Shown in pieces: positions 7,058 through 46,017 of a stretch of DNA of 64,000 bases. The position numbers and the translations under genes are program-made. The notes beneath the pieces are model-generated. The model worked only from the letters and a program-made list of their open reading frames with translations, ran no database searches and was not told the origin of the DNA. Source of the stretch: an uncultured Chthonomonadales bacterium (GTDB lineage Bacteria; Armatimonadota; Chthonomonadetes; Chthonomonadales; CAJBBX01); the NCBI GenBank assembly GCA_938005745.1, contig CALLMM010000003.1, positions 10,572 to 74,571 of the forward strand, read 5' to 3'. Numbering within the stretch: the first letter of the stretch is position 1; every line of letters begins with the position of its first letter.

Positions 7058-7147
7058 CGGAGCGAGTGGGATTCGAACCCACGAACAGGTTTTACCCCGT
7101 TACACGATTTCCAGTCGTGCTCCTTAGGCCAGCTCGGACATCGCTCC
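7058..7147 (-). tRNA. tRNA-Ser (anticodon GGA), long variable arm, no encoded CCA
   Basis: The reverse complement reads GGAGCGA-TG-...-CACGA-CTGGAAA-TCGTG-(variable arm AACGGG/CCTGTT)-GTGGG-TTCGAAT-CCCAC-TCGCTCC-G. It has a 7-bp acceptor stem, a T-loop TTCGAAT, and an anticodon loop with U33 and A37 flanking GGA. Confidence 0.92.
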
Positions 7148-12863: not shown

Positions 12864-13595
12864 TCACAGCTGATGCGAGATATGCTGAAGTACGATCTGG
12901 TTGGGGATCAGGTGCGACGGCATTGCTAGCAGGTCCAGTATACTGTGTGCAACCTCCCCCGCCGTGAGCAGCATCTCCGGTCGGGGTTTTCCGGCTATCC
13001 CCTCCCAGAAGGGGGTATCCACGCCGGAGCAGTAGACTCCGGTGACGCGAATGCCGGATCGTCTCCCCTCCTGCGCCAGTGCGTTGGTGAGACCGGCAAG
13101 GGCATGTTTGGTGGCGCAGTAGAGCGCGGCGTTGGGGATTGTTTTCACGCCGAGAATGCCGCACAGGTTGATGATCATCCCCTCTTTCTGTGCGGACATC
13201 ACCTGCCAGACCGCTTTTGCAGAGAGGATCGCCCCTTTCACGTTGACATTGAGCAGACGATCTATGGTCTCTTCAGAGGTGTCCGTCAGCGGACCAAGAT
13301 AGCCGGCTCCTGCGCAGTGCACCAGCGCGTCCAGCCTGCCAAACCGATCCACGGTCTGTTGTACCGCATTCTCGATCTGAGCGGCGATAGTCACATCCGC
13401 CTGCACGGCGTGCAGTTTCGCGCCGGGGAAAAAGATCTCATCTACGGTCTGCTGCAGCCGCTCCATGCTTCGACCGCAAATGGTGACAGCAGATCCCTGT
13501 TTCAGCAGCCTCTCTGCTGCCGCCTTTCCGATGCCGCTGCTGCCGCCGGTAATGAGCGCGACGCCTTTAAACATCCGGTATATCTCCTTCAACAA
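12864..13595 (-). CDS. Short-chain dehydrogenase/reductase (SDR)
   Basis: Cofactor motif TGGSSGIGKA and catalytic YCATKHAL. The true start may be ATG 13574 (MFKGVALITGG). Confidence 0.9.
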   Translation of the reverse strand: MLKEIYRMFKGVALITGGSSGIGKAAAERLLKQGSAVTICGRSMERLQQTVDEIFFPGAKLHAVQADVTIAAQIENAVQQTVDRFGRLDALVHCAGAGYLGPLTDTSEETIDRLLNVNVKGAILSAKAVWQVMSAQKEGMIINLCGILGVKTIPNAALYCATKHALAGLTNALAQEGRRSGIRVTGVYCSGVDTPFWEGIAGKPRPEMLLTAGEVAHSILDLLAMPSHLIPNQIVLQHISHQL

Positions 13596-13650
13596 GTGTC
13601 ACCTAATCTACGCAGACGCAAAACAGGATGCTCCCCTGAGCGAAGCTGGC

Positions 13651-13679
13651 TTGACAACCGACCGCCAGCGCACTATCAT
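13651..13679 (+). promoter_or_regulatory. Sigma-70-type promoter TTGACA-N17-TATCAT
   Basis: TTGACA at 13651-13656, a 17-nt spacer, and TATCAT at 13674-13679. It lies upstream of the metallopeptidase-like gene, inside the non-coding part of ORF-track entry 12945-14480. Confidence 0.55.
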
Positions 13680-13736
13680 GAGGCAGATCGCATCATGCGA
13701 CAGGTAGGCTATCCTCTTGAATCGAGATACAGGCGA

Positions 13737-14480
13737 ATGAGACCCGCTCATTTACATTTCATCCTCCTCGCAGGACTGCTGCTGCTTGCTTGCCGCTCTT
13801 TCGCACAGAACCGAACCGGCGCCGCGTACGATCCGACCTCTCTCTACCAGAAACGCATCCTGCAGGGATTTACGCTCTACATCCATCCGGAAGCGCTGGA
13901 ACGGGAGAAGGAGACAGGAATCGCACTCAGGCTGCTGGAAGAGAAGTTATCGGAGATCGTGCGGATCATGCCGGATGACAGGCTGAAGAGGCTGCGGCAG
14001 TTCGCCTTCTGGATCGAATGGGAGGGACGGTTTCCCACCGCGATGGTCTGTCATCTCTCGGCGGAATGGCTGCGGGAGAACGGGCACAATCCCGACAAGG
14101 AGTTAAGCGTCGAGATGGTTCATCCTCCGAAGTTCGTCCAATGGACGACGGAGGATCAGCCGATGATGGTTCTGCATGAACTCGCCCATGCCTACCACTA
14201 TAAGTTTCTCACGCGGCAGAACCCGGACGTTCTGAAAGCCTTTGACAGTGCGGTGAAGAGCGGGAAGTACGAGATGGTGCCCTATGTTCGCGGACAGAAG
14301 CTGCGCGCATACGCGCTGACAAACGATACCGAATACTTCGCAGAGTTGACGGAAGCCTACTTCGGGCGCAACGACTTCTATCCGTTTACCCGTGACGAGT
14401 TGAAGGCGTTCGATCCCGAAGGATATGCGCTGATGGAGCGCGTCTGGGGCAAACCAAAAGAGGAGATCAAAAGACCATGA
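13737..14480 (+). CDS. Secreted zinc-metallopeptidase-like protein (HExxH plus downstream EYFAE)
   Basis: Signal peptide MRPAHLHFILLAGLLLLACRSFAQ. HELAHAYH plus NDTEYFAELTEAYF resembles the gluzincin/M90-type arrangement. An alternative in-frame ATG lies at 13695. The 5' part of the 511-aa track ORF is antisense to the SDR gene. Confidence 0.7.
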   Translation: MRPAHLHFILLAGLLLLACRSFAQNRTGAAYDPTSLYQKRILQGFTLYIHPEALEREKETGIALRLLEEKLSEIVRIMPDDRLKRLRQFAFWIEWEGRFPTAMVCHLSAEWLRENGHNPDKELSVEMVHPPKFVQWTTEDQPMMVLHELAHAYHYKFLTRQNPDVLKAFDSAVKSGKYEMVPYVRGQKLRAYALTNDTEYFAELTEAYFGRNDFYPFTRDELKAFDPEGYALMERVWGKPKEEIKRP

Positions 14481-17135: not shown

Positions 17136-17801
17136 ATGAGGGTACGCAACGCAGTCGTACTGTCTCTGTTTTTTCTGAGCGGAGCGCTGTTCCTCAAGAC
17201 GGAGGCGAAGGGGCAAACCATTGACAGCGGGAATGTCCAGATTAACACCCTGACAAACGTTAAGCCCAACAACGCCGCGGCGGAAAACGACAGCTACGCC
17301 AATCTATTTTTGGAGCGAGCCAATCATACGCTTGCCTCTAGTCTGGCGGTAGATGTCTTCAGTCCGCTGGGCAGCTATAACGGCAGCTCATCCTCCGTTG
17401 GAAGCATTGCCGCTGGAACGGTCGTCAACAGCTACTGGCTGAACGTGGATAAGGTAGGTTCTAGCTCCGTATTGGTCAGTTACTCAGGACAGATCACCTT
17501 CCAGTACAAGATTCTGGGGGTTATCTTCAACAATCAAAGCCGGTTTGCCGGCAGTACTGCCGTTCTAGGAAAACCCGGAACCACCTATCCCGGTGCAGGT
17601 TCATACGGACCGCTGGAAGCCACGGACACTTTCAGCGTAACCAACGGCGGCAAAACTCTGATCTTTAGCTGGAAAGTGAACACCAACGCCGATCAGATGC
17701 GGATTATCACCGCTGTACCGGAGCCGGCTTACTATCAGCTCGGCGCGCTGCTGATAAGCGGAGGACTGCTCACTTTAACCAGGCGACGCAAACAAGCCTA
17801 G
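17136..17801 (+). CDS. PEP-CTERM sorting-domain protein (exosortase substrate)
   Basis: N-terminal signal peptide. The C-terminus AVPEPAYYQLGALLISGGLLTLTRRRKQA has the PEP motif, a TM helix and a basic tail. The body is Ser/Gly/Asn-rich. GC is lower than in the surroundings. Confidence 0.85.
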   Translation: MRVRNAVVLSLFFLSGALFLKTEAKGQTIDSGNVQINTLTNVKPNNAAAENDSYANLFLERANHTLASSLAVDVFSPLGSYNGSSSSVGSIAAGTVVNSYWLNVDKVGSSSVLVSYSGQITFQYKILGVIFNNQSRFAGSTAVLGKPGTTYPGAGSYGPLEATDTFSVTNGGKTLIFSWKVNTNADQMRIITAVPEPAYYQLGALLISGGLLTLTRRRKQA

Positions 17802-19488: not shown

Positions 19489-21252
19489 ATGCGATCCTCG
19501 TTTCGCCACTTCCCCTATCTTATGCTCCTCCCGCTTCCTCTTCTGTTGCTCTATCGGGCGGAAAGGCAGGAGACGCCCCAGCTCTTTGAGCGCAGGCTTG
19601 CCCCGGGAGTCGTCTATGTGCAGGAGATCACTCCTCCTCCGAATGGTCCGCTTGTCTGTCATGTTCTTCGCGTGAATCTGCAGGAGAAGGGCGTCTTCGT
19701 GCGCTCGGAGATCGGGCGCGACGTGGTGCTGACGGATGAGCCGGAGCAAGGGCGCGAGACCGTCGGCGACCTGGCAGTGCGGCATAAGGCGTTGGCGGCG
19801 GTCAACACCGATTTTTTTCCCTTCACGGGAGACCCGCTGGGGATCGCCATTCGCGACGGAGAGCTTCTGAGCGAGGGGATGCCCAACCGGGCGGCAATGG
19901 GGATCACGGCGCAGGGCAGGATCCTTTTCGATACGCTGCTGCCGATCGGCACGCTCTTTCCGGCACGGGGAGTCTATCGCGCTCTGGACGGCATCAATCG
20001 GGTTCCCGGGAAGAATGAGATCGTTGCGCTGACCCCCTCCTATGGTCAGAGGCTGTTCGCGCCGGAGAAGTCGGTATTCGTGCCGCTCTCTGGGGTGGAC
20101 CTGCCGGTCAGGGCGGGGCAGGAGCACCGGGGAACCGCCGGCATTCCGCAGGATGCAGACCCCAACATGCAAATTCTGCCCGGTCAGGTGGTGCTGGTGG
20201 GGGAGGGGAGCGGCGCGCAGTGGATTCGGGAGCATATCCGCGGAGGTGACACCGTTCGGTTCCGTTTCGACTTTGTAACCAATCCGCTGAACGGTAACAA
20301 CGCGCGCGGAGAGTTCAGTTCCCGCGCGGAGAGCCTGCGCGGTCGCGCCGTGCGCAGCGTCTGGTCGGATGTGGTTCAGGCGGCTGGAGGCGGACCCTGG
20401 CTGATTCGGGACGGCAGCATCGCGATAGATGGCGAGGCACAAGGGTTCAACCGAGAGACCTTTGTCCTGCGCCGACATCCGCGTACGGCAGCCGGCGTAA
20501 CGGAAGCGGGGGAGCTGCTGCTAGTGGTGGTGGATGGTCGGCAGTCGTTCAGCCGGGGGATGTCTCTGCCGGAACTGGCGGAGTATATGAAAAAGCTCGG
20601 CGCAGTGCAGGCGATCAATCTGGACGGGGGCGGCTCCTCCACGCTGTTTGCGCGAGGCATGTATCTCAACGGACCCTCGGACGGCTTGCCCAGACCCGTC
20701 TCCAACGCGCTTCTGATCTTTGCGGATAAACCGGAGGAGACGATCCCGTCGGCAGTGAACGATGCGATCGTCTTCCAGGCGGGTGAGAGCGTGAGGCTCA
20801 CTCTGCCGGATGCGCAGGCGCAGGATGCGATGACGCTCTGGGGAACGCTGGAAGGTCGCGGCTTTGTGGACCAGCGCGGAGCGTTGACCTCGACGCGCGC
20901 CGGTGCGGGGACGGTCGTCGCCTGGCGTAACGGAAGCCGGAGAACCTATCCCTATCAGGTGCTGCCGCTGCAGCCTGCCACGCTGCGCGCCTCCTGGATT
21001 CCGGTGGCAAACAACCCTCCGGATCGAAGCGGGGTGGCGGTAGTGGTTCTGGATCGGTTCGGCAACCCGGTTCCCGGGCAGGAGGTGCGTCTGCAGGTTT
21101 CGGGAGGAGCGGCAGACCGCATACAGCTCACCACCGACTCACGGGGGCGCGCGCAGGCGGAGATCGTCTGGGAACTGGAGAGCATGGAACGAAGCGTCCG
21201 AGTGACCTCCGGCAGTCTGCCTCCGGTATCCCTGACTCCAAAACGTATGTAG
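19489..21252 (+). CDS. Phosphodiester glycosidase family (DUF2233/NAGPA-like) exported protein with C-terminal Ig-like domain
   Basis: Hydrophobic N-terminus, the characteristic AINLDGGGSSTL motif, and a C-terminal beta-rich region (...VVVLDRFGNPVPGQEVRLQVSGG...) resembling a bacterial Ig-like domain. Confidence 0.8.
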   Translation: MRSSFRHFPYLMLLPLPLLLLYRAERQETPQLFERRLAPGVVYVQEITPPPNGPLVCHVLRVNLQEKGVFVRSEIGRDVVLTDEPEQGRETVGDLAVRHKALAAVNTDFFPFTGDPLGIAIRDGELLSEGMPNRAAMGITAQGRILFDTLLPIGTLFPARGVYRALDGINRVPGKNEIVALTPSYGQRLFAPEKSVFVPLSGVDLPVRAGQEHRGTAGIPQDADPNMQILPGQVVLVGEGSGAQWIREHIRGGDTVRFRFDFVTNPLNGNNARGEFSSRAESLRGRAVRSVWSDVVQAAGGGPWLIRDGSIAIDGEAQGFNRETFVLRRHPRTAAGVTEAGELLLVVVDGRQSFSRGMSLPELAEYMKKLGAVQAINLDGGGSSTLFARGMYLNGPSDGLPRPVSNALLIFADKPEETIPSAVNDAIVFQAGESVRLTLPDAQAQDAMTLWGTLEGRGFVDQRGALTSTRAGAGTVVAWRNGSRRTYPYQVLPLQPATLRASWIPVANNPPDRSGVAVVVLDRFGNPVPGQEVRLQVSGGAADRIQLTTDSRGRAQAEIVWELESMERSVRVTSGSLPPVSLTPKRM

Positions 21253-21256
21253 AGGG

Positions 21257-21802
21257 TCAGTCGGAAGCGGGCAGCAGGTGCATGCAGTTGAAGCAGGTTC
21301 GGGCGGTGATAAAGTTCATTGCGCCGCAGTGCCGGCAGCGGATCTCCGCCCATTCGGCGGGGGGATGATGGATCGGATCGGGCTGCCCCTCAATGATATC
21401 GAACCCTTCTGGGTCGGTTCTCTGGGTGTCGCGCAGACGCTGCGTGATCGTGCCGCTCAGCTCCAGAGCGCCGGGATGATGGGGATCGAGATAGAGCGCG
21501 ACATGGTTCTCGCTGGCAGCCTCCTCTAGGTCGTGAATGCTGCAGAGAAAGACGGCGAAGTTGTAGTGGGTGGAGGCGCGTCCCGGGCAGAGTTCGATCG
21601 CCCGTTCAAAATACTCCCTGGCTCTGTCGCGATCCTCCAGGCGGGCGTAGGAGATGGCGAACAGTTCCATCAACTCCGGGTGATCCGGGCGCTGTTTTTG
21701 CAGCTTCTGAAGCTCTTTCAAGATCGGCTGAATGTCCGGTCCCTGTAACGCCCGGCGCGCCCTCTGGATTCTCTTTTCGAAGTCAGAGAGAGTATCTGAC
21801 AT
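21257..21802 (-). CDS. TPR-repeat protein with C-terminal zinc ribbon
   Basis: TPR-like helices (...AISYARLEDRDRAREYFERAIELCPGRASTHYNFAVFL...). The C-terminus is CRHCGAMNFITARTCFNCMHLL. The ATG is preceded by GGGGGA. It is the last gene of the ExeA-like/ParA operon. Confidence 0.75.
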   Translation of the reverse strand: MSDTLSDFEKRIQRARRALQGPDIQPILKELQKLQKQRPDHPELMELFAISYARLEDRDRAREYFERAIELCPGRASTHYNFAVFLCSIHDLEEAASENHVALYLDPHHPGALELSGTITQRLRDTQRTDPEGFDIIEGQPDPIHHPPAEWAEIRCRHCGAMNFITARTCFNCMHLLPASD

Positions 21803-21874
21803 AGAGTCATCCCCCGGCTGTATCGAAATCCTGCAACTATTATACAGGGTTTCCGCCGGGGGGAAGACTCTTTT

Positions 21875-22192
21875 TCAGGATCGCTCTTCAGTTTCCAGCA
21901 GATAGGCGGCGATCAGTCCACGGCAGAGAGCGGGACGCGCCGTAACGGTCTGCATGATCGCCTCTACAATCTCCGGGATCTCCGCGCAGATACCGTACTG
22001 TTTGAGCGTCTGCTGAATCTCCAGCAGCGTCTGCATATTCTGCGGCGCAAACGTGCGATCGTCCGTTGGCGGGATCACTACCGCTGGCGCGGGAGTGATC
22101 GCGATCGGTCTCTCGTCGGCAGGCGGTTCAGGCTGCCGGACGGGCGAAAGCAGCCCCTGCATGGCTGCCCGTATGTCTTCTCGACGCGGCAT
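21875..22192 (-). CDS. Small hypothetical protein downstream of and overlapping parA-like gene
   Basis: ORF-track entry 21875-22249. In-frame ATGs at 22249, 22192 and 22162 all overlap the ParA 3' end (stop at 22128). Pro-rich N-terminal half and helical C-terminal half. No motif recognised. Confidence 0.5.
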   Translation of the reverse strand: MPRREDIRAAMQGLLSPVRQPEPPADERPIAITPAPAVVIPPTDDRTFAPQNMQTLLEIQQTLKQYGICAEIPEIVEAIMQTVTARPALCRGLIAAYLLETEERS

Positions 22193-22943
22193 AAGCTTGG
22201 TCCTCCTGAAGAACCTCCTGCGCCAGGGCGCGGTAGGCATAGGCTCCATTGGAGTCGGGAGCGTACTGGAGAATCGTTTGACCTACGGCTGGAGCTTCTG
22301 CCAGACGAACTGTGCGTGGGATAACCGTCTCATAGACAAGACCGGGCAGCGCCCTGCGCGCCTCTCTCAGCACATCCTGCGCATGAAGTGTCCGCTTGTC
22401 GTACATCGTCGCTACGACCCGCAAGCGTAGATTCCGGTTGGTGGTCTCCTGAATAGACGCCGTGATCTCCTGAACGTCCGCCAGTCCTCGCAGCGACAGA
22501 AATTCACACTGCAGCGGGACCAACGCCACATCGGCGGCGGTCATCGCATTGGTGGTGGCGTGGCTCAGCGACGGTGGGCAGTCTATCAGACAGTAGTCGA
22601 AGTTGGTGCCGATCAGATGAACCGCCTTCTGAAGTTGATAGGCAGGCTCTCCGATCTCATCCAACTGCAGAAACACATTTGCCAGCCTTGCGGTGGCGGT
22701 GACAACGTGCATGTTGCCGGTACACGGATAGATTGCGTGCAGAATAGATTCGGGAGCCAGCAGCACATCCCCCATCGTCAGACCGGTGGCGGCGCGACCG
22801 ACGGCAGCCGTCAGGCTGCCCTGTGGGTCCATATCCAGCAGCAGGACTCTCTTACCCATCTCCGCCAGAGCGGCTCCCAGGTTGATCGTGGAGGTAGTCT
22901 TCCCGACCCCTCCTTTCTGGTTGACGATTGCATAGGTCAGCAT
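22128..22943 (-). CDS. ParA/Soj-type deviant Walker-A ATPase
   Basis: AIVNQKGGVGKTTSTINLGAAL (signature lysine present), LLLDMDPQGS and IDCPPSL. 271 aa with an Arg/Ala-rich tail of about 30 aa. No parB-like gene is adjacent. Confidence 0.9.
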   Translation of the reverse strand: MLTYAIVNQKGGVGKTTSTINLGAALAEMGKRVLLLDMDPQGSLTAAVGRAATGLTMGDVLLAPESILHAIYPCTGNMHVVTATARLANVFLQLDEIGEPAYQLQKAVHLIGTNFDYCLIDCPPSLSHATTNAMTAADVALVPLQCEFLSLRGLADVQEITASIQETTNRNLRLRVVATMYDKRTLHAQDVLREARRALPGLVYETVIPRTVRLAEAPAVGQTILQYAPDSNGAYAYRALAQEVLQEDQAYAASRRHTGSHAGAAFARPAA

Positions 22944-23019
22944 GTAGCAGTTCCGATCTAATCTCCGAAGGAGTTAGTCTGTCTGTTTCTGTTTCGCGGG
23001 TATCCCCTACCGGGAAAGG

Positions 23020-23412
23020 CTAATCCGGCAGCGCGCTGCGCCACTTCCGCAGTACCTGTTCTCTCAGCGCATGCAGCTGCTCTAGGGTCCATGCATCCGA
23101 ATATCCCGACGACAGGGGATTCTGCAGCAGATGCGCCGCCTCTTGCAGGCTTATCGGTCTGCTGACGGCTTGCGCCGGTTTCGGTCTCTCTGCGGGTCCT
23201 TGAGCCGGACGCGGACCGCGCGCGGGGACGTCTCGGACATACGCCTCGCGCGGCAGTTCCGGTGCGCTTGCTGGATCGAGCGGTACCTGTGAGTTCAGGC
23301 GTTCGTGCAGAAGCCGCGCCTTCATCGTGGTCGAGAGGTGCGGCATATCTGCAAACAACTCATCCAGACGCTTTCGTTTCGCGTTGCTTTCGCTGTCCTG
23401 CTCGTACTCCAT
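23020..23412 (-). CDS. Hypothetical soluble protein (130 aa), translationally coupled to the ExeA-like gene
   Basis: The ATG lies 1 nt after the ExeA-like TGA, with GGAGAAGG upstream. It has an acidic N-terminus, a Pro/Ala/Arg-rich linker and a helical C-terminus. No TM segment or recognisable motif. Confidence 0.6.
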   Translation of the reverse strand: MEYEQDSESNAKRKRLDELFADMPHLSTTMKARLLHERLNSQVPLDPASAPELPREAYVRDVPARGPRPAQGPAERPKPAQAVSRPISLQEAAHLLQNPLSSGYSDAWTLEQLHALREQVLRKWRSALPD

Positions 23413-23413
23413 C

Positions 23414-24277
23414 TCAGGCTGCCTTCTCCAGCGTTATCTTTCCATGCCGCGGGATCCGCCCGTTCATGTCGCTCATCGCCTGTTCAACATGCTCCGGCAG
23501 CAGCCGGTCTGCGTCTCGCAGGAAAGCCTCTTTCATCGTGGCTTCGGTTACCACCAGAATATCGCGCGGAACGCCGCCGCTGAACTCATAGATCGCTTTC
23601 ATTGTCTCTACCGGGCACAGACGGATGGGGTCATGACAGCCCGCCCGTCGGAACCGGTGCAGAATCATGGCGTCCGTCTCTTCTGCAGAGAGCGGCTCCA
23701 GTGTCGAAACGGAGGCGATCCGGCTCTGGAGCGCTGGGAAGTAGGACAGTTTCCGATCTATATTCAACTGAGCGGAGAGCACAATCTGCATCAGAATCCG
23801 TTCGCGAGTCTCCAGATTCAACAGGTCGCGAAACACCGGCATCGCCTTGGAGCCGATGGACTGCGCCTCGTCCACAAACAAAACGACGGTCTTACGCTCC
23901 TCATACGCCTGCTCCAGCAGCCAGGTCTCCAGACTCGAGACCATCTCTCGGGTGGAGTTGGATGGGGGCAGACCGAAGGCGGAAAGCACCTCCGACAGCA
24001 GTACCCTGGGCGTGCTGATGGTGGCGGTATTCTGCAGTTTCGCGCACTTCCATCCGAATTGCTGGGGCCAGACCGTCATCAGGTATTCGATCAGGAACGA
24101 TTTCCCCAGTCCTACATCGCCGCGTACTAACGCTAGCCCTCCATGCTCTTCAATCGTCCATCGCGTCTTGATAACCGCTTCTTTATGCTGCGTGGACAGG
24201 AAGAGCCATTTCGGATCGTGGTTGCGTGCGAACGGGGTTTCGGTCATCCCAAAATGCCGAATATACTCCGTGGGCAT
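23414..24277 (-). CDS. ExeA/GspA/MshM-like AAA+ ATPase (ATPase domain only)
   Basis: N-terminal YIRHFGMTETPFARNHDPKWLFLSTQHKEAV is typical of ExeA-type proteins. P-loop GDVGLGKS and Walker B/DEAQ box VVLFVDEAQS. Strong SD GGAGGAGG. No peptidoglycan-binding C-terminal domain. Confidence 0.85.
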   Translation of the reverse strand: MPTEYIRHFGMTETPFARNHDPKWLFLSTQHKEAVIKTRWTIEEHGGLALVRGDVGLGKSFLIEYLMTVWPQQFGWKCAKLQNTATISTPRVLLSEVLSAFGLPPSNSTREMVSSLETWLLEQAYEERKTVVLFVDEAQSIGSKAMPVFRDLLNLETRERILMQIVLSAQLNIDRKLSYFPALQSRIASVSTLEPLSAEETDAMILHRFRRAGCHDPIRLCPVETMKAIYEFSGGVPRDILVVTEATMKEAFLRDADRLLPEHVEQAMSDMNGRIPRHGKITLEKAA

Positions 24278-24759
24278 CCTTAAACTCCTCCTCCGGATCG
24301 TGCTAGCTCCCTTATTCCATAACGCGACCCGAATCTATCAGTGTAACTCCGCTTATTGTCGCCGTCGCGGATGATTCTGTCATCTGGAACGCGAGGCGTG
24401 AGACGGTCTTCGCCTTCTGAGACCTCTCCCATCTGAAGACGCAAACTCCACAGGCGCTGTCTGAATGATAGGTGAAAATGGCAGGGCAGCCGGACTATCA
24501 CGCGACAGGATGCTATCCCGTATACACATTGTCGGATGCTGGCATTCCCGACTGGACAGCAATATCTAGAATCCGGGTAAACTGGCGCGTCCCGCCGTCC
24601 GGCAGATGGAAGATGCCGTCTAGCCCCGATAGAAAAAAGCAATTTTCGATAAATCTTTTCAGAGTGTCTGCAACGTCTAACTCTGTGATTGCGTCCCTCA
24701 GAAAGGGGTCCGTGAGGAGCCGATGAGAAAAATCCACCTATCGGAAGCAGGAACAGACG

Positions 24760-25761
24760 ATGCTCATTCCGGGACTGCCCGACCACACTCAGCCGAGAGT
24801 CTACACAGATACGCCCCGCAGTTACAGATTGATTGACGGCTTAATCGAACTCGAACCATGTAATTCGGTGATACACTTTCGCTCCAGCGAGTTTCACAGC
24901 AAACGGCACGCCGGTCCGCTCTCCATTCGATGCGCCTTCAATGGACAGAGAACCTATTCCGTCCAGCAGACCGACTTTGCCGTCAGCGATGGCTGCTATC
25001 TGGTTCTGAATGAGGGACAGGTCTTTTCGAGCCATATTCGCTCCGAGACCGAGGTGGAGAGTTTCAACATCAACTTCCGTCCAGGCTTTGCGGAGGAGGT
25101 GCTGAGGAGCCTGATCACCAGCGCAGATCATCTGCTGGATGCGCCGAATGAGGACTGCGGACAGCCGGTTCTCTTCTTCGAACAGCTCTACCCGCATGAT
25201 AGTATCCTCTCGCCCGATCTGATCAAGCTGAGAATCACGGTTTCGCAGGAGTGGGCGACGCATACCTGGCTGGAGGAGAGGTGCCATGATCTCTTGGAGA
25301 AACTGCTTCAAGTACACCGCAGCATCGGCAGGGAGATCGAAAGCCTGCCGCTGGCGCGCGGAACGACACGACGAGAACTCTACTACCGCCTGCATCGCGC
25401 TCGCGACTTTATGGAGTCCAATCTGCGTCAGCCGATCTCCATCGCACAGATTGCAGAGGTCGCCTGCCTGTCACCGCACTACTTTCTGCGGATGTTCAAG
25501 CAGACCTTTCAGGAGACGCCGCATCAGTATCTGACGCGCCGGAGGCTGGAGACCGCGAAGAGCCTGCTGGTGAAAACCGACTGTTCCATCACGCAGATCT
25601 GTCTGTCGGTGGGATTCGAGAGCCTGGGGTCCTTCAGCTGGCTGTTCCGCCGGCGTTTCGGGGTCTCGCCGGAGATGTATCGCAAACATGCTCGAAATCC
25701 GCTGCATCCGCGACCGTGCGATCTGGACTGGATCCGGAATGCGTTGAAGTCGCCCTCTTAG
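24760..25761 (+). CDS. AraC-family transcriptional regulator
   Basis: C-terminal double HTH: ISIAQIAEVACLSPHYFLRMFKQTFQETPHQYLTRRRLETAKSLL...ITQICLSVGFESLGSFSWLFRRRFGVSP. The N-terminal domain is cupin-like. Confidence 0.9.
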   Translation: MLIPGLPDHTQPRVYTDTPRSYRLIDGLIELEPCNSVIHFRSSEFHSKRHAGPLSIRCAFNGQRTYSVQQTDFAVSDGCYLVLNEGQVFSSHIRSETEVESFNINFRPGFAEEVLRSLITSADHLLDAPNEDCGQPVLFFEQLYPHDSILSPDLIKLRITVSQEWATHTWLEERCHDLLEKLLQVHRSIGREIESLPLARGTTRRELYYRLHRARDFMESNLRQPISIAQIAEVACLSPHYFLRMFKQTFQETPHQYLTRRRLETAKSLLVKTDCSITQICLSVGFESLGSFSWLFRRRFGVSPEMYRKHARNPLHPRPCDLDWIRNALKSPS

Positions 25762-35956: not shown

Positions 35957-36032
35957 CAGCAGGCAAACTGTGTCCGTCCTGTAACCTCTTCTGCGTGTCT
36001 CTGTTCCAGACATCCGCTCCTAAGGAGCTGTT

Positions 36033-37166
36033 ATGATAATTCCGAACTACAGACTCGGACCGATTGATCTCGTCACGCTTCTCCCGTATATCGCGATGCT
36101 CTGCATCATCGGCTTCATCCTGGCGATCGTGCCGCTGCTGATCTGGATTGAGCGGGTGGTGATCTCGCTGATGCAGGATCGCATCGGACCCAACCGGGTC
36201 GGTCCGCGGGGCTTGCTGCAGACCATCGCCGACGGGATCAAGCTGTTTTTCAAAGAGGACATTCAGCCGCGCGCGGTAGATGTGCGAATCTACTATCTGG
36301 CTCCCGTGCTGGCGATGATACCGGCTCTGACTGCCGGGGCGACGCTGCCCTTCTCCACCGTGCGCTTCCGCATGGAAGACGGATCGGTGCAGACCTTCCC
36401 GATGGTGGTGGGCAATGTTAATATCGGCATCCTCTTCATTCTGGCGATGGCGTCCCTGCAGGTCTACGGGATCATTCTGGCGGGCTGGTCCTCCAACAAC
36501 AAGTACTCCCTGCTGGGAGGGCTTCGCGCCTCCGCGCAGGTGATCAGCTATGAACTGGCGATGAGCCTGGCGATCTTGAGCGCGGTGCTGATGTCCGGCT
36601 CGCTGAACCTGGTGCATGTGGTGGAGGCGCAGATGAACGGTTTCTGGAACTGGAACCTCTTCGCCTATCCGCCGCTCGGCTTCATCATCACAGTGATCTA
36701 CCTGATCTCCATGGTGGCGGAGACGAACCGCGCTCCCTTTGACCTGCCGGAAGCAGAGTCGGAACTGATCGCCGGCTTCCATACCGAGTACTCCTCCATG
36801 AAGTTCGCCATGTTCTTCATGGGCGAGTACGCGAGTATGCTGGTGGTCTCCGGCGTGGCGGTTTCGCTCTGGTTTGGAGGTTGGACCTCGCCCCTGCCTC
36901 TCTTGGACTTCATTCCAGGCTTTATCTGGTTTCTGGTCAAGCTGTTCGCCCTGTTCTTTGTCTATGTCTGGCTGCGCGCCAGCCTGCCGCGACTGCGCTA
37001 CGACGCGCTGATGAACCTGGGCTGGAAGCGGATGCTGCCGACCGCGCTGGTGATCCTGTTCCTCATCGCCTGCTGGAATACCCTGCGGACGCCGCAGGCT
37101 CAGGACGCGAACCCCGTCTCCGAGATCACCATGGCTCCCGCCCGGGCAGCCGAAGGAGAGCGATAA
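36033..37166 (+). CDS. nuoH: NADH-quinone oxidoreductase subunit H
   Basis: IERVVISLMQDRIGPNRVGPRGLLQTIADGIKLFFKE, FDLPEAESEL and 8 predicted TM segments. Confidence 0.95.
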   Translation: MIIPNYRLGPIDLVTLLPYIAMLCIIGFILAIVPLLIWIERVVISLMQDRIGPNRVGPRGLLQTIADGIKLFFKEDIQPRAVDVRIYYLAPVLAMIPALTAGATLPFSTVRFRMEDGSVQTFPMVVGNVNIGILFILAMASLQVYGIILAGWSSNNKYSLLGGLRASAQVISYELAMSLAILSAVLMSGSLNLVHVVEAQMNGFWNWNLFAYPPLGFIITVIYLISMVAETNRAPFDLPEAESELIAGFHTEYSSMKFAMFFMGEYASMLVVSGVAVSLWFGGWTSPLPLLDFIPGFIWFLVKLFALFFVYVWLRASLPRLRYDALMNLGWKRMLPTALVILFLIACWNTLRTPQAQDANPVSEITMAPARAAEGER

Positions 37167-37167
37167 G

Positions 37168-38058
37168 ATGAGCTTTAACTGGTCGCTCATGGTCTTCTTC
37201 ATCCTTGCCGGTATCTCGGTCGGATCGGCGCTGCTGGTGGTTGCCAACCGAAACCCGGTGCGCAGCGCGCTCTTTCTGGTGGTGAACTTCTTCGTGCTGG
37301 CGATCTTTTTCCTGACGCTCTCCGCGCAGTTTATCGCGGCGGTGCAGGTGATCGTCTATGCCGGCGCGATTATGGTTCTATTTCTGTTCGTCATCATGCT
37401 GCTGAACCTGGGCGCGCCGGAGGCGTTGAAAGAGCGGGGAGGACTGCAGATGCCGGTCGCCATCGCGCTGGCGGTGGTCTTCATCTCCTCGCTGGGACTG
37501 GCGGGATCGCTGACTACCGGACTTCCGCCCACCAGGGCGACCCCGGCAACGGTGGACGGCTCGCCCTACTTCACCAACAGGGACATACTGCTCCCGGCGG
37601 ATCTGGCGCAGAAACTGCGGAACGGCGCAGACCCGGCGACCGCCTATCTGCGAGATCAGATGCATCCGGAGGTGCAGGCAAAGCTGGCGGCGTACCGAGA
37701 CAGCGATGCGCCTTCCGTGGAGCTGATCAGCGATATGAAGCGGGAGTTGAATCGCCTGGTGGACGGACCGAACCTGTATGACCCGCAGCGATTCTCCTCC
37801 GTGCGTCTGTCCAGAGAGACGCAGAAGCTCCTGAACAGCGCCTCCCCGATGACCGACAGAAAACGGATAAATCGGCTGCTTCTGCAGGATGTATTCCCCC
37901 TGGAGATCACCAAGAGCGATCAGATGGGATCGGTGGAGACGATCGGTAAGGCGATGTTCGATGCGAAACAGCCCTGGCTGCTGCCGTTTGAACTGACCTC
38001 CATTCTGCTGCTGGTGGGAATTGTCGGGTCGGTAGTGCTGGCGAGAAGGAGAGGATAG
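37168..38058 (+). CDS. nuoJ: NADH-quinone oxidoreductase subunit J with a large hydrophilic insertion
   Basis: N-terminal NuoJ helices (NRNPVRSALFLVVNFFVLAIFFL..., AAVQVIVYAGAIMVLFLFVIMLL) and C-terminal LLPFELTSILLLVGIVG. About 130 hydrophilic residues lie between them. The ATG is 1 nt after the nuoH stop. Confidence 0.85.
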   Translation: MSFNWSLMVFFILAGISVGSALLVVANRNPVRSALFLVVNFFVLAIFFLTLSAQFIAAVQVIVYAGAIMVLFLFVIMLLNLGAPEALKERGGLQMPVAIALAVVFISSLGLAGSLTTGLPPTRATPATVDGSPYFTNRDILLPADLAQKLRNGADPATAYLRDQMHPEVQAKLAAYRDSDAPSVELISDMKRELNRLVDGPNLYDPQRFSSVRLSRETQKLLNSASPMTDRKRINRLLLQDVFPLEITKSDQMGSVETIGKAMFDAKQPWLLPFELTSILLLVGIVGSVVLARRRG

Positions 38059-38060
38059 GT

Positions 38061-38369
38061 ATGCTGGGCGTCCCGACCGAGTACTTTCTGGTTCTGAGCG
38101 GCATCCTCTTTACTATCGGGGTGATCGGGGTTCTGATCAAACGGAACCCGATCGTGATCTTCATGTGTATCGAGTTGATGCTGAACGCCGTCAATCTGAC
38201 CTTCATCGCGCTGGGACGGCACTTTGTCCATGTGAACGGGCAGATGTATGTGATCTTTGTGATGGCGGTGGCTGCGGCGGAGGTCGCCATCGGACTGGGG
38301 ATTATCGTCGCCCTGTTCCGCTCCAAAGAGACGATCAATATTGATGAGGTCAACCTGATGAAGTACTGA
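38061..38369 (+). CDS. nuoK: NADH-quinone oxidoreductase subunit K
   Basis: 102 aa with 3 TM segments and FMCIELMLNAVNLTFIA. Confidence 0.9.
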   Translation: MLGVPTEYFLVLSGILFTIGVIGVLIKRNPIVIFMCIELMLNAVNLTFIALGRHFVHVNGQMYVIFVMAVAAAEVAIGLGIIVALFRSKETINIDEVNLMKY

Positions 38370-38421
38370 AGCCCGCGAAGTTTACCGCTCGAATCGGCTT
38401 ACAGTACGGAGTGACATCGCT

Positions 38422-40524
38422 ATGCATGAGTTGCCATCCGCCAATCTGGTAGGACTGATCACCGGGCTGCCGCTGCTCGGGTTCCTGTTCCATGCGTTTT
38501 TCGGAAAGCTCATCATCACCCGGATGGGCAATGCGGTCGGGAAGCGCGTGGTAGGGGGACTGGCTACGGCGCTGGTGTTCGCCAGTTTCGGAGTGAGTCT
38601 CATAATCTTTTCTGGTCTGCTTTCGATGGAAGGGGAGCATAAGCGCGCTTTTGCGAGTCTCATCCCCTTTCTGAGCAAGCCGGTCGCCTGGATTGACATC
38701 GCCGGTTTCAAGGCGAATTTTGGTGCGCTGGTAGATCCGCTCTCGATCCTGATGTGTCTGATCGTTACGGGAATCGGCGGACTAATCCATCTTTATGCGA
38801 CCGGTTACATGGCAGCTGATAAGGACTACGCCCGTTTCTTCACCTACATGAATCTGTTCATCTTTTTCATGTTGGTGCTGGTGCTGGCGGACAATATCCT
38901 GCTGATGTTTGTGGGATGGGAGGGCGTCGGTCTCTGCTCCTATCTGTTGATCTCCTTCTGGTACGAGGATACGGAGAACTCGAAGGCGGGCAACAAGGCG
39001 TTCATCGTCAACCGGGTCGGCGATGTCGGGTATGCGCTGGGAATCATGGCGATCTTCGCCTTTTTTGGCACGCTGACGTTCTATACGGCGGACGGCAAAG
39101 GCTTTCTGGACGCCGCGATCGCGGGAAAAGCCGCCAACGGCGCTGACTTTACGGCGGAGATCGCGCTGGTGATCGGTCTGCTGCTCTTTGTGGGAGCCTG
39201 CGGAAAATCGGCGCAGTTTCCGCTGCATGTCTGGCTGCCCGACGCGATGGCGGGTCCGACGCCGGTCAGCGCGCTCATCCACGCCGCCACGATGGTTACC
39301 GCCGGGGTGGTGATGCTGACGCGCATGTCGCCGATCATCGTCAAGTCGGAGACAGTGCTGCTGGTGGTCGCTGTTGTCGGGCTCTTTACCGCGATCTTCG
39401 CGGCAACCATCGCCCTGACGCAAAACGACATCAAGAAGGTGCTCGCCTATTCCACCGTCTCGCAGCTTGGCTATATGTTTCTGGGATGCGGCGCGGGGGC
39501 GTTCGGCGCGGGCATGTTTCATGTTACGACGCACGCCTTCTTCAAAGCGCTGCTCTTTCTGGGAGCCGGATCGGTCATACATGCGCTGCATCATGAGCAG
39601 GATATGCGGCGTATGGGCGGGCTAAGCAAAAAGATCAAGGTGACCTATCTGACCATGCTTGCCGGATGGGTCGCCATCTGCGGAATACCGCCGTTTGCCG
39701 GTTTCTGGAGCAAGGACGAGATCCTGGGGTATGCCGCCGGCATACACAGCTTCGGCATGCTGATCTATGCCGTCGGACTGATCACCGCCGCTCTGACCGC
39801 CTTCTATATGTCCCGGCTGATGTGGAAGACCTTCTGGAGCGATCAACGCTTTGACGAAGCGGCTCTAGGCGCTCACGGACATGGCGGCGATTCGCACGAC
39901 GCGCTTCACGATCACGGGAACGACGCTCACAGCGTGCATGACGCACAGCCGCACTCCTCCGGCGTGAAGGAGTCTCCGCCCTCCATGCTGGTTCCGCTGG
40001 TGATCCTCGCGGCTCTTTCTGTGGTCGGAGGCTTTATCGGCACGCCGTTCAACAACTTCTTCGAGCACTTCCTGGAGCCTTCCATCGCCAGGTCGGAGGC
40101 GCATCACGGCGTCTCCTTCTTGACAGGAGCTGCGCTGGGAACCATCGCCGCCGCCATCGGGATCGCGCTGGCGTATACGCTCTATGCGAAGCGGCGCGCT
40201 ACCGGCGAACTGCTCACCGAAGCGCAGAAAGCGGGTAATCTCCTCTATCAGGCTCCCGCTAATCTCTGGTATGTGGATCGCTTCTTCTACGATCTGTTTG
40301 TCATTCGGGGCGGAAATATCGCCGTTGCACTCTGGCGGGTGGTAGACCAGAACATAATTGATGGTCTCGTAAACGCCGTCGCAGGCATTACCGGTCTCTT
40401 CAGTGAGCTGTTCCGGCGCCTGCAGACCGGTTACATACGCGCCTATGCCCTCTCCATGCTGACCGGCGTGGTTCTGGTGGTGATTGCGCTCCTGTGGAGC
40501 GCGATGAGAACGATGGGCAAGTAG
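38422..40524 (+). CDS. nuoL: NADH-quinone oxidoreductase subunit L
   Basis: WEGVGLCSYLLISFW, KSAQFPLHVWLPDAMAGPTPVSALIHAATMV and a long C-terminal lateral-helix region. 700 aa. Confidence 0.95.
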   Translation: MHELPSANLVGLITGLPLLGFLFHAFFGKLIITRMGNAVGKRVVGGLATALVFASFGVSLIIFSGLLSMEGEHKRAFASLIPFLSKPVAWIDIAGFKANFGALVDPLSILMCLIVTGIGGLIHLYATGYMAADKDYARFFTYMNLFIFFMLVLVLADNILLMFVGWEGVGLCSYLLISFWYEDTENSKAGNKAFIVNRVGDVGYALGIMAIFAFFGTLTFYTADGKGFLDAAIAGKAANGADFTAEIALVIGLLLFVGACGKSAQFPLHVWLPDAMAGPTPVSALIHAATMVTAGVVMLTRMSPIIVKSETVLLVVAVVGLFTAIFAATIALTQNDIKKVLAYSTVSQLGYMFLGCGAGAFGAGMFHVTTHAFFKALLFLGAGSVIHALHHEQDMRRMGGLSKKIKVTYLTMLAGWVAICGIPPFAGFWSKDEILGYAAGIHSFGMLIYAVGLITAALTAFYMSRLMWKTFWSDQRFDEAALGAHGHGGDSHDALHDHGNDAHSVHDAQPHSSGVKESPPSMLVPLVILAALSVVGGFIGTPFNNFFEHFLEPSIARSEAHHGVSFLTGAALGTIAAAIGIALAYTLYAKRRATGELLTEAQKAGNLLYQAPANLWYVDRFFYDLFVIRGGNIAVALWRVVDQNIIDGLVNAVAGITGLFSELFRRLQTGYIRAYALSMLTGVVLVVIALLWSAMRTMGK

Positions 40525-40538
40525 GAGACGAGGGACTG

Positions 40539-42170
40539 ATGAACTATCTGTTGAACGCCGTCATATTCCTGCCGCTTGCGGGCGCGCTGCTGCTGCTTTT
40601 CTTTCCCCGCCCGGAAGACGCGCCAGAATCACACGGACACGGGGAGGAGACGCCTGCGCCGCCGGATGCCGCCGCGCAGGCAGTTCGCTGGTTCACCCTG
40701 GCGGTCTCTCTCGTCACATTTGTCGCTTCGGCGTGGCTGCTGACCGGCTTCGATATCGCGCAGAAAGAGGGCTATCAGTTCGTGACGGACCGGATATGGT
40801 TTGTCATGGGAGACCTGCGGGTTCGCTACCATATCGGCATTGACGGGATCAGTCTGCTGCTGATCCTGCTGACGACCTTCCTCAGCGTGCTGTCGGTGCT
40901 CTTCTCGTTCTCCATCAAGAAGCGGCTTCGGGAGTATATGGTCTTCCTGCTGGTCCTGCAGACGGCGATGACCGGGGTGTTCTGCGCGCTCGATCTAGTG
41001 CTCTTCTACGTCTTCTTTGAAGCCGTCCTGATTCCGATGTACTTTCTGATCGGCATCTGGGGACATGAGCGGCGCATCTACGCAGCGGTGAAGTTCTTTC
41101 TCTACACTTTCGTGGGCAGCGTGCTGATGCTGCTGGGGATCGTCTTCATCTATCTGAACACCGGATCGCTCAGCATCGTGGATCTCGTAAAGCCCGGCAC
41201 TGACGCCTACATGAAGCTGAACCTGCTGGATGCGCAGACCCTGATGTGGCTGTACGCGGCGTTCGCGCTGGCGTTCATGATCAAAGTTCCGATGTTCCCG
41301 TTCCATACCTGGCTGCCGGATGCCCATGTGGAGGCGCCGACGGCAGGATCGGTCATTCTGGCGGGCGTTTTGCTGAAAATGGGGACCTACGGCTTCATCC
41401 GGATCTGCCTTCCGATCTTCCCGATCCAGGCGCAGAACAGCGCAATGCTGTTCATCCTTCTCGCGATCATCGGCATCATCTACGGCGCGATAGTCGCGGC
41501 GGTGCAGCCGGATATGAAGAAACTGGTCGCCTACTCCTCCGTCAGCCATCTGGGATTTGTGATGCTGGGCGTCTTCTCCTTCACCAAGCTGGGCATGGTC
41601 GGAGCGGTGCTGCAGAGCATCAATCACGGGGTCTCGACCGGAATGCTCTTCTTCATGGTGGGGATGATGTACGAGCGCAGGCATACCCGCGAGATCGCCG
41701 CCTATGGCGGGATCAAGCGCGTGGTGCCGGTGATGGCAGCCTTCTTCCTGATTGCGCTGCTCTCCTCCATCGCCCTGCCGCTGACGAACGGGTTTGTCGG
41801 AGAGTTTACCATTCTTCAGGGAAGCTACATCTCACAGAACAGCGGTCCGCTGCTGACGTTCGTCGCCGCGCTGGGAATGGTGCTCTCCGCCGTCTATATG
41901 CTCTGGCTGTTCCAGAGGGTCTTCACCGGACCGGTCAAGCATGAGGAGAACCGCCATCTACGGGATATGAACTGGCGCGAGAAGGTGGTTCTCGTACCGC
42001 TGGTGATCATGATCTTCTGGTTCGGCTGCTATGTATCTACCTGGACCCGGTATCTCAATCAACCGGTAGACGAGCTAATGGGCAGGCTGGGGATCGAGAA
42101 TCAGGAGCAGAGACCTCGTGACCCCAATGCGCCCTCACCTTTGAGAGGTTCGCCAACGGGAGCAGGTTAA
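40539..42170 (+). CDS. nuoM: NADH-quinone oxidoreductase subunit M
   Basis: KVPMFPFHTWLPDAHVEAPTAGSVILAGVLLKMGTYGF. The start is ATG 40539 (MNYLLNAVIFLPLAG). Confidence 0.95.
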   Translation: MNYLLNAVIFLPLAGALLLLFFPRPEDAPESHGHGEETPAPPDAAAQAVRWFTLAVSLVTFVASAWLLTGFDIAQKEGYQFVTDRIWFVMGDLRVRYHIGIDGISLLLILLTTFLSVLSVLFSFSIKKRLREYMVFLLVLQTAMTGVFCALDLVLFYVFFEAVLIPMYFLIGIWGHERRIYAAVKFFLYTFVGSVLMLLGIVFIYLNTGSLSIVDLVKPGTDAYMKLNLLDAQTLMWLYAAFALAFMIKVPMFPFHTWLPDAHVEAPTAGSVILAGVLLKMGTYGFIRICLPIFPIQAQNSAMLFILLAIIGIIYGAIVAAVQPDMKKLVAYSSVSHLGFVMLGVFSFTKLGMVGAVLQSINHGVSTGMLFFMVGMMYERRHTREIAAYGGIKRVVPVMAAFFLIALLSSIALPLTNGFVGEFTILQGSYISQNSGPLLTFVAALGMVLSAVYMLWLFQRVFTGPVKHEENRHLRDMNWREKVVLVPLVIMIFWFGCYVSTWTRYLNQPVDELMGRLGIENQEQRPRDPNAPSPLRGSPTGAG

Positions 42171-42198
42171 GCAACGTCGGAGGCGAAAGGAGCCGAGC

Positions 42199-43131: not shown

Positions 43132-43188
43132 GTGGAAGCGCGCCCCATCTGTGAATGCGCACGATATTGATTCTGTCCTGGAGGAGTT

Positions 43189-44667: not shown

Positions 44668-44684
44668 TGCATTCTCGGCTCTCG

Positions 44685-44723
44685 AGAGACGCCGGGCGGA
44701 AACCGATTCCGCCCGGCGTCTCT
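44685..44723. terminator. 15-bp perfect GC-rich hairpin between convergent nuoN and the TlpA-like gene
   Basis: agagacgccgggcgg (44685-44699) pairs with ccgcccggcgtctct (44709-44723), with a 9-nt loop. It lies 18 nt after the nuoN stop and 20 nt after the minus-strand stop. Confidence 0.7.
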
Positions 44724-44742
44724 GGTTCTGGCGCCTGTCCGA

Positions 44743-45894: not shown

Positions 45895-45965
45895 AGAAGC
45901 CTCCCTGATGGGATGAGATACAACTCTGTTCTCAAATGATCCTGTGGATTCCTTTGGCATGCATG

Positions 45966-45997: not shown

Positions 45998-46017
45998 CGT
46001 CATGCAGTCGTTACCGC

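Follow-up and report, generated by a model that had tools for sequence, protein, structure and literature searches.

The stretch of DNA considered here, hereafter the window, comprises 64,000 nucleotides (nt) from an uncultured Chthonomonadales bacterium of soil (contig CALLMM010000003.1 of assembly GCA_938005745.1, positions 10,572-74,571 of the forward strand), and according to the list of open reading frames (ORFs) five ORFs of the minus strand fill positions 21257-24277. In order, they encode an ExeA/MshM-like cytoplasmic AAA+ ATPase, a small protein designated sp2, an extra ParA of the Soj type, a second small protein designated sp4, and a protein combining tetratricopeptide repeats (TPR) with a C-terminal zinc ribbon. 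The original prediction, drawn up from the sequence letters, had described these genes as an orphan five-gene operon; the ORF list and the domain scans confirm the run and its order, with small corrections, but the conserved unit consists of four genes forming two ATPase-partner pairs, namely AAA+-sp2 and ParA-sp4, and not of five. By a crude hydrophobicity check, no transmembrane candidate was found in any of the five proteins.

The AAA+ gene (23414-24277, minus strand) codes for a protein of 287 amino acids (aa) corresponding to the ATPase half only of ExeA. The Pfam scan returned only AAA-type matches, with AAA_22 at 3e-15, and the best annotated relative is the ATPase half of ExeA from Aeromonas caviae (30% identity, E 3e-28). 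While this control, scanned alike, exhibits both the GspA_C39-like and PG_binding_1 domains, neither a C39-like nor a peptidoglycan-binding domain was detected by Pfam in the 287-aa protein, which bears out the predicted lack of the peptidoglycan-binding half. The Walker A motif GDVGLGKS (at residue 53), the DEAQ box (at residue 136) and an N-terminal YxxHFG..PF motif (Y..HFG...PF..R) are invariant among 32 AAA+ homologues. As regards the ExeA subfamilies of TIGRFAM, among which it had been proposed to classify the protein, TIGR03015 (XrtA/PEP-CTERM system-associated ATPase) aligned full length, over positions 2-267 of 269, but at 141.6 bits, i.e. far under the curated cut-off of 324.5 bits, and the identity of a PEP-CTERM-type ATPase was rejected. 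A short ExeA-like ATPase devoid of the peptidoglycan-binding half is normal for the PEP-CTERM-type model, whose 269 positions are matched end to end, and equally so for MshM. Chthonomonadales (Armatimonadota) genomes and metagenomes encode homologues at 55-98% identity, and JGI gives some homologues the name MshM or GspA.

The sp2 gene (23020-23412, minus strand, 130 aa) has its ATG 1 nt past the ATPase stop, as noticed at the outset and borne out by the ORF coordinates, and this tight junction is repeated in relatives. The ParA gene (22128-22943, minus strand) encodes 271 aa, a length found exactly in most of the loci carrying the module, and the protein matches AAA_31 at 1e-45, with KGGVGKTT, a deviant Walker A motif of the form KGGxxK[ST], at residue 10. 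The nearest solved structure is that of Soj from Thermus thermophilus (1WCV, 9e-52), with MCDA among the weaker structure matches, and the Walker motifs as well as a Soj-like IPRxVRLAEAP stretch are kept; the Soj-type assignment thus stands. No ParB is adjacent, the gene 3' of ParA being sp4, which has no Pfam or NCBIfam match.

For sp4 (21875-22192, minus strand), the listed ORF (21875-22249) amounts to 124 aa, and the start lies at the ATG at 22192, which gives exactly the 105 aa originally estimated and an overlap of 65 nt with the 3' end of the ParA gene. The Shine-Dalgarno sequence AGGAGGA (22201-22207, minus strand) stands 8 nt upstream of this ATG, inside the 3' end of the ParA gene; in several relatives an in-frame stop occurs just before the equivalent Met, and it is at that Met that amino-acid conservation begins (M-E/Q-R-R-D/E-D-I-R-A-A-M). 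The overlap is exactly 65 nt in 13 loci, and most relatives have a GGAGGA-like sequence 8-9 nt 5' of the sp4 ATG, within the 'QEED' codons of ParA.

The fifth gene (21257-21802, minus strand) encodes 181 aa with TPR repeats and a C-terminal zinc ribbon (CRHC-N10-CFNC), each with family matches; both features had been predicted, but the spacer counts 10 residues instead of 11. The N-terminus, MSDTLSDFEKR, read from the sequence, holds no signal peptide and so no lipoprotein signal; the identity of a PilW/PilF TPR pilotin (TIGR02521) was rejected, with 40.3 bits vs. a cut-off of 154 bits, and the second-best curated match is PrsT. The 72-nt gap before the gene (21803-21874) contains a TATAAT-like element, TGTATAAT, and a GGGGGA ribosome-binding site; given these elements of its own, the TPR gene may have its own promoter, at ~21840, and its membership of the operon is in doubt.

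Conservation of the four-gene core and its proteins

Loci surrounding homologues of the ATPase were retrieved from assemblies and, for each species, from a single genome, and were searched with the five window proteins, with hidden Markov models (HMMs) of sp2 and sp4, and by all-against-all ORF clustering. The sample comprises 30 non-redundant Chthonomonadales loci, window included, and 55 outgroup loci, mostly from Acidobacteriota with some Omnitrophota and others, where AAA+ identity is 31-40%; Chthonomonas calidirosea is not represented in it. The four-gene unit is present in 21 of the 30 Chthonomonadales loci, between flanks that differ from one locus to another, and ParA, sp2 and sp4 were found near the ATPase in none of the 55 outgroup loci. 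All four genes are colinear in 18 loci (window, L004, L006, L008, L010-L016, L018-L020, L022-L024, L028), and in three more (L003, L031, L032) the AAA+ gene is divergent from a PilZ-sp2-ParA-sp4 series. Two loci (L005, identical in sequence to L021, and L017) have the AAA+-sp2 pair without ParA-sp4, with an intact HTH_17 domain in sp2, and seven (L001, L007, L025-L027, L029, L030) have AAA+ alone, as a paralogue clade of ~312 aa plus L025. Order, spacing and overlaps are kept across 56-82% AAA+ identity, the sp2 ATG lying 1-4 nt past the AAA+ stop in the loci whose coordinates were compared, and both small-protein families occur only beside these ATPases.

The original prediction depended above all on the five genes recurring together in other genomes: four of them do, the TPR/zinc-ribbon gene does not. 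An ortholog of the latter in the same position exists only in L011 (39% identity, TPR and zinc ribbon both kept); it is absent from L019, which has the same downstream NAGPA gene as the window, and a metagenome scan for the TPR/zinc-ribbon protein gave no close relative, only two unrelated TPR fragments. It is this distribution, one other locus for the TPR gene and 21 of 30 loci for the four genes, that delimits the conserved unit. The TPR/zinc-ribbon gene as a conserved fifth member was rejected and, judging from these comparisons, it is a lineage-specific add-on outside the core. As for the two small ORFs, whose translation had been left in question, they are genuine conserved proteins, each joined to the upstream ATPase gene by a gap of 1-4 nt or an overlap, and the tightness of this junction in each ATPase-partner pair suggests translational coupling.

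In the Fimbriimonas genome, the rRNA genes are split and the genes of the oriC region are scattered (PMC4072686); the module cluster is tightly kept in a related lineage despite such dispersal, which therefore suggests selection for co-expression. Some genomes encode two modules (L014/L031, L015/L032, L018/L022, L020/L024) with differing fifth genes, e.g. PilB in one and a cyclase or PilZ in the other, suggesting duplication followed by specialisation. Full-text literature searches on ExeA/MshM combined with ParA/ATPase yielded no description of this gene set, and the module and the two small-protein families sp2 and sp4 are previously undescribed. The idea of an undescribed ParA-based module with adaptor-like small proteins therefore survives as far as the layout is concerned, but not the membership of the TPR protein nor the lack of known partners. 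In six loci, namely L004 (5725-7875), L008, L010, L011, L016 and L019, a protein of ~630-720 aa is encoded directly upstream of AAA+ on the same strand; it has no Pfam or NCBIfam match and could be a further lineage-specific partner. The window is without this gene and has an AraC gene in its place.

The module ParA is, at least as judged by a related genome, an extra paralogue and not the chromosomal Soj, in keeping with the original prediction. In L030, a canonical ParA (264 aa) is followed by a ParB with a GERRFRAA motif, and this locus comes from the same genome, Bin_57_9, as the module locus L012. The window ParA is 41% identical to this canonical ParA vs. 58-73% to most module ParAs, which form a clade of their own, apart from the canonical one, in a rough neighbour-joining tree; moreover, the canonical ParA is without the 20-residue tail that carries the sp4 overlap.

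Regarding sp2, conserved N-terminal helices are followed by a variable linker and a conserved C-terminal domain. Its N-terminal motif, KRLDELFADxPxLSxTMKARxLHExL, of which the part LDELFADxPxLSxTMKARxLHExL is invariant, was modelled by AlphaFold2 as two helices with a pLDDT of ~90, and its C-terminal segment, with the pattern LS..EAA..LR...FR..VL..WL, is a degenerate HTH_17-like domain. The profile searches recommended for the small proteins thus gave a helix-turn-helix trace in the C-terminus of sp2 but no Pfam, NCBIfam or PADLOC family for either sp2 or sp4. A Foldseek comparison of the sp2 model with the PDB returned no match, and sp2 is not a T2SSB protein by Pfam, to which the ExeB control does match. 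With six-frame HMM searches, sp2 was found in 27 related loci and 0 outgroup loci; the family is rare, with 108 representatives among 1.84 billion proteins in an exhaustive profile search. An intact HTH_17 remains at the C-terminus of 21 of the 94 scanned family members, and the C-termini of short and long forms align with an hhalign probability of 98% (E 1.3e-13); on this evidence, sp2 appears to be derived from a DNA-binding protein of the MerR/excisionase type, the recognition region of which has decayed. It would thus exemplify a DNA-binding domain decaying into a probably protein-binding one. The persistence of AAA+-sp2 where ParA-sp4 is absent is the reason for pairing sp2 with the AAA+ ATPase and sp4 with ParA. 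L004 (12205-12810), L009 (5234-5839) and L010 (7471-8076) contain, just past the cyclase gene, a further sp2 paralogue that shares the N-terminal motif and has its HTH_17 intact, so that these loci encode both the decayed and the intact forms.

Regarding sp4, a conserved basic N-terminal helix (M-x-RR-D-D-IRAAM) precedes a proline-rich linker and a three-helix C-terminal domain ending in RPxLCRGLLAAYLL. In the AlphaFold2 model, built on a shallow alignment of 8 sequences, the C-terminal helices span residues 50-65, 72-85 and 87-103 with a pLDDT of 84-91; the model has no strand, and the hydrophobic nature of its last helix speaks against a role of this helix in DNA recognition. Against the PDB, Foldseek gave nothing below E = 4, the ribbon-helix-helix of NikR appearing at a non-significant E = 6.8. 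The six-frame HMM found sp4 in 21 related loci and 0 outgroup loci. Word-indexed homologue searches had yielded only 5 (sp2) and 7 (sp4) proteins, hence the shallow alignments for structure modelling, partly because gene callers truncate or miss sp4; the six-frame searches of the fetched loci recovered both families. In a plasmid collection, sp4 has no homologue, and the proteins matching the AAA+ ATPase, with 27-30% identity, are of the ExeA or PEP-CTERM type; a plasmid origin of the module was rejected on both counts. The layout of conserved helices, variable linker and conserved C-terminal domain is that expected of an adaptor and suggests such a nature for both sp2 and sp4; that of sp4 resembles partners of ParA-type ATPases, namely ParG, McdB, MinE and the ParB N-terminus, a resemblance and not a contact.

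Gene neighbourhood in relatives and in the window

The gene 3' of sp4 varies among the module loci. In L014, L015 and L018, a PilB-type ATPase is encoded on the same strand ~100-230 nt past sp4; it matches T2SSE at 2.5e-134, carries a MshEN N-terminal domain, scores 600 bits on TIGR02538 and contains the MshE-related cyclic di-GMP (c-di-GMP) motif at 51.7 bits vs. a cut-off of 38. The L014 contig ends inside PilB; T2SSF/PilC comes next in L015 and L018, and is followed in L018 by a pilin, a DUF7305 protein and a minor pilin with an N-methyl motif. Upstream of AAA+ in these three loci are housekeeping genes, which indicates that the pilus-linked cluster starts at the AAA+ gene. The reported absence of pilus genes therefore holds for the window but not for these relatives, where the module runs into pilus genes, the only machine genes found directly joined to it.

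The commonest gene 3' of sp4, in 10 loci, encodes a class III nucleotide cyclase, i.e. a membrane sensor with Tll0287-like, HAMP and Guanylate_cyc domains. A 90-aa PilZ protein is encoded directly before sp2 in L003, L031 and L032, and in L029 a PilZ gene directly follows the AAA+ gene, which there stands alone. None of the Chthonomonadales loci yielded a secretin. In the outgroup, the Omnitrophota loci L078 (9682-15159) and L047 display a MerR-type helix-turn-helix gene, AAA+, a 255-aa protein, a secretin and a TPR protein, so that the association of this AAA+ family with a small winged-helix protein extends beyond Chthonomonadales.

In the window itself, the module is flanked by metabolic and housekeeping genes, namely glycolate-oxidase-like genes and those for ThuA, a GHL10 hydrolase, a protein with a PEP-CTERM-like tail and isocitrate dehydrogenase, as well as a NAGPA-family protein, a divergent AraC regulator, PdxS, polyphosphate kinase and the nuo operon; PilB, PilC and secretin genes were not detectable in its 64 kb. 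The intergenic region at 24278-24759 (~480 nt) is common to the AAA+ gene and the divergent AraC-family gene. It contains a sigma-70-like site, ATGACA-17-GACAAT (24355-24383, minus strand), upstream of the AAA+ gene, which is the only such match in 20800-25000 and no more than shuffled sequences give, hence weak evidence. Closer to the gene, ~45 nt 5' of the AAA+ ATG, stands TATGGAATAA (~24318-24327, minus strand), which includes the 8-mer TGGAATAA; by k-mer comparison of the upstream regions, 8 of 18 loci share the 8-mer and 3 of 18 the whole 10-mer, and this element may be a -10-like promoter element or an operator. A cross-locus k-mer search of the intergenic regions gave no other common DNA motif, and in 21000-24800 neither a repeat array nor a palindrome suited to act as a centromere was found. 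At the Rfam gathering threshold, the whole window contains a single tRNA and nothing in the 480-nt upstream gap, where an RNA element or riboswitch was thus rejected; the tRNA gene lies away from the module, at 7058-7147 (minus strand), and its 90 nt are long enough for a long variable arm. A defence system was likewise rejected, PADLOC giving trivial P-loop matches only, and no integrase, transposase or repeat boundaries were seen at the module.

Other features of the window were recorded in passing. At 17136-17801 (plus strand), 3.4 kb from the module, a secreted-looking protein of 221 aa ends in VPEPAYYQLGALLISGGLLTLTRRRKQA, which resembles a PEP-CTERM sorting signal. Neither this protein nor an ORF of 511 aa (12945-14480, plus strand), situated between the genes for ThuA and a Gfo/Idh/MocA-like protein, is matched by Pfam at 1e-4. 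The AT skew is strongly negative (-0.08 to -0.18) at 36001-46000, coinciding with the plus-strand nuo run from 29156, and probably reflects the T-rich codons of membrane subunits and not an anomaly.

Possible function of the module

Owing to its linkage with PilB/PilC, PilZ and cyclase genes, the module has the look of an accessory to type IV pili and not of a free-standing new machine, and its most likely task is the regulation or positioning of pili, not the segregation of DNA. More precisely, we give a probability of roughly 0.45 to its being a cytoplasmic module accessory to an MSHA-like type IV pilus system, in which AAA+-sp2 would be the MshM-like arm and ParA-sp4 a second arm, spatial or regulatory. 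The comparisons show the gene content and its conservation, the tight junctions, the paralogy to the canonical ParA and the linkage with pilus, PilZ and cyclase genes; the function and all protein contacts are what we infer.

In such a system, ParA would dimerise on ATP and bind a surface, most likely the nucleoid, the Soj-like IPRxVRLAEAP stretch being retained. The basic N-terminal helix of sp4 would bind ParA and stimulate its ATPase activity, as ParB, ParG, MinE and McdB do for theirs, and the helical C-terminal domain would tether ParA to a cargo. The latter would probably be the AAA+-sp2 complex, or else the pilus motor PilB/PilC served by this complex; the AAA+ and TPR proteins had originally been proposed as cargo or scaffold, and nothing shows either to be a cargo. 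The invariant motif at the N-terminus of sp2 would dock it on the AAA+ ATPase, the C-terminal domain of sp2 being a presumably decayed form of the DNA-binding HTH_17 fold, and the cyclases and PilZ/MshEN receptors encoded nearby in relatives would feed cyclic nucleotide monophosphate (cNMP) and c-di-GMP signals into the same process.

Several points weigh against this proposal. The 64 kb of the window hold no gene for PilB, PilC or a secretin, and the subclade of the window has the TPR/zinc-ribbon gene or nothing past sp4. The pilus-linked loci are three out of 21 and may represent only one or two evolutionary events on rough neighbour-joining trees, and the commonest fifth gene, a cyclase, is not pilus-specific. 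Besides, the fold of sp4 matched nothing, so that its role as an adaptor is deduced from layout, and the role of MshM is itself undefined, so that the term pilus accessory names no biochemical activity. A more specific version, possible but unlikely, is that of a new ParA-based positioning system for a type IV pilus machine, where sp2 and sp4, two families confined to Chthonomonadales, would connect a gradient of the Soj-like ParA with an MshM-like AAA+ hub, which would set where and when PilB/PilC assemble under the control of cNMP and c-di-GMP. If true, this would be the first defined role for the long-unexplained MshM/ExeA-like cytoplasmic ATPases.

Rather unlikely, in our view, is that the module is a second-messenger-controlled complex serving another envelope process, such as the export of exopolysaccharide or PEP-CTERM proteins or secretin assembly, with the adjacency to pilus genes being secondary. 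The curated models do lean this way, XrtA/PEP-CTERM-associated ATPase being the best match of the AAA+ protein and PrsT the second-best of the TPR protein, but the former falls far short of its TIGR03015 cut-off. The PEP-CTERM-like tail encoded 3.4 kb away could be taken as a further hint, but the scanned flanks of the window are without polysaccharide genes, and no glycosyltransferase or polysaccharide-export gene is prominent among the recurrent neighbours, exosortase not having been searched for. The outgroup relatives adjoin a secretin, but none was found in the Chthonomonadales loci; the cyclase as the commonest fifth gene (10 loci) speaks for this reading, but the only machine genes found directly joined to the module are those of pili.

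That the module is a second system for DNA partition or nucleoid organisation, of the type Ib kind, seems quite improbable. ParA-sp4 would then act like ParF/ParG, sp2 or sp4 would sit on a chromosomal site, and the AAA+ protein would be a DNA-bound loader related to TniB/ORC. ParA is indeed closest to a chromosomal Soj, and a ParA gene followed by a small overlapping gene is the established layout of type Ib par; but no centromere-like repeat or palindrome was found in or around the module, nor any common DNA motif beyond the promoter-like element, and the three-helix model of sp4, with its hydrophobic last helix, shows no ribbon-helix-helix strand and matches no DNA-binding fold. The origin of sp2 in an HTH_17 protein, with the domain kept in 21/94 members, and the outgroup AAA+ genes beside winged-helix proteins (MerR in L078, HTH_36 in L049) would point to DNA, but the helix-turn-helix is decayed in the form of sp2 that accompanies ParA. 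Moreover, the module lies on large chromosomal contigs among housekeeping genes, plasmids yielded no homologue of sp4, and the linkage with PilB/PilC, PilZ and cyclase genes would be left unexplained. Finally, that there is no functional unit at all, only a chance run of genes or a mobile or defence island, is hardly credible: flanks do differ between genomes, some genomes have two copies, and Armatimonadota disperse some normally clustered genes, e.g. the rRNA and oriC-region genes of Fimbriimonas (PMC4072686), but the conservation of order, spacing and overlaps across 56-82% AAA+ identity already contradicts it, the small-protein families occur only beside these ATPases, and no PADLOC match of note, integrase, transposase or repeat boundary was seen.

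Short ExeA-like ATPases occur in both pilus and PEP-CTERM loci, and the job of the MshM type is undefined. The module provides an ATPase of this kind with a constant, dedicated partner, sp2, and ties it to a ParA-adaptor pair and to second-messenger genes, which makes for testable protein contacts. It adds two new small-protein families, sp2 and sp4, and is a possible new case of a ParA-type ATPase associated with a surface machine, for which TadZ is the precedent (PMC6668835), here with type IVa-like pili and in a little-studied phylum.

Comparison with known systems

In Vibrio cholerae, the msh genes run in the order mshL (secretin), mshM (ExeA-like), mshN (TPR), mshE and mshG, and surface pili persist when mshM or mshN is deleted; deletion of mshM nevertheless alters behaviour dependent on c-di-GMP, and transposons inserted in mshM or mshN suppress a motility defect related to c-di-GMP (PMC4624765). 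A parallel order is seen in the Chthonomonadales clusters, where sp2-ParA-sp4 stand as an insertion past the MshM-like gene, i.e. AAA+...TPR in the window and AAA+...PilB-PilC in L018. As in the MSHA system, a short cytoplasmic ExeA-like ATPase is encoded 5' of a TPR gene (window, L011) or of MshEN-PilB (L014, L015, L018) and PilC (L015, L018), and a link to c-di-GMP exists through the MshEN motif and PilZ. Unlike it, the module has sp2, ParA and sp4 between the ATPase and the TPR or PilB gene and is without adjacent secretin or PilMNO-like genes, the window is without nearby pilus genes, and its TPR protein is small, cytosolic and ended by a zinc ribbon.

With ExeA/GspA, the module shares homologous AAA_22 ATPase halves and a small partner gene directly next to the ATPase gene. 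In contrast, the window protein has no transmembrane span by the crude check, nor a C39-like or peptidoglycan-binding domain, and sp2 is not T2SSB, whereas T2SSB does follow ExeA in A. caviae; neither a secretin nor a type II secretion locus accompanies the module.

Among ParA systems, Soj-Spo0J provides the best sequence relative of the window ParA, with the Walker motifs and IPRxVRLAEAP kept, but the module ParA has no ParB beside it, a related genome has its canonical parA-parB pair at another locus, and the module ParAs form a separate clade. In the type Ib par systems (ParF-ParG, pB171 ParA-ParB) and in McdA-McdB, a small ParA without N-terminal DNA-binding domain is followed by a partner of ~100 aa, and in the type Ib and McdB partners a flexible linker joins a basic segment at the N-terminus to a folded domain at the C-terminus, as in sp4. 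However, centromere-like repeats are lacking in the module, sp4 shows neither a ribbon-helix-helix nor a helix-turn-helix fold in the model from 8 sequences, and the module is chromosomal, order-wide and always accompanied by the AAA+-sp2 pair.

TadZ/CpaE carries an N-terminal receiver-like domain, whereas the window ParA is Soj-like with a standard KGGVGKTT, its P-loop starting at residue 10 and so leaving no room for an N-terminal domain. It further differs in having a dedicated partner, sp4, and in being linked to pilus genes, PilB/PilC, that belong to the type IVa/MSHA kind and not to Tad. TadZ, which has an atypical Walker A, localises at the pole and acts as a hub recruiting other pilus components (PMC6668835). 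As in the module, an ATPase of the ParA/MinD superfamily is thus encoded with type IV filament genes, and by analogy TadZ is the closest functional counterpart of the ParA-sp4 arm.

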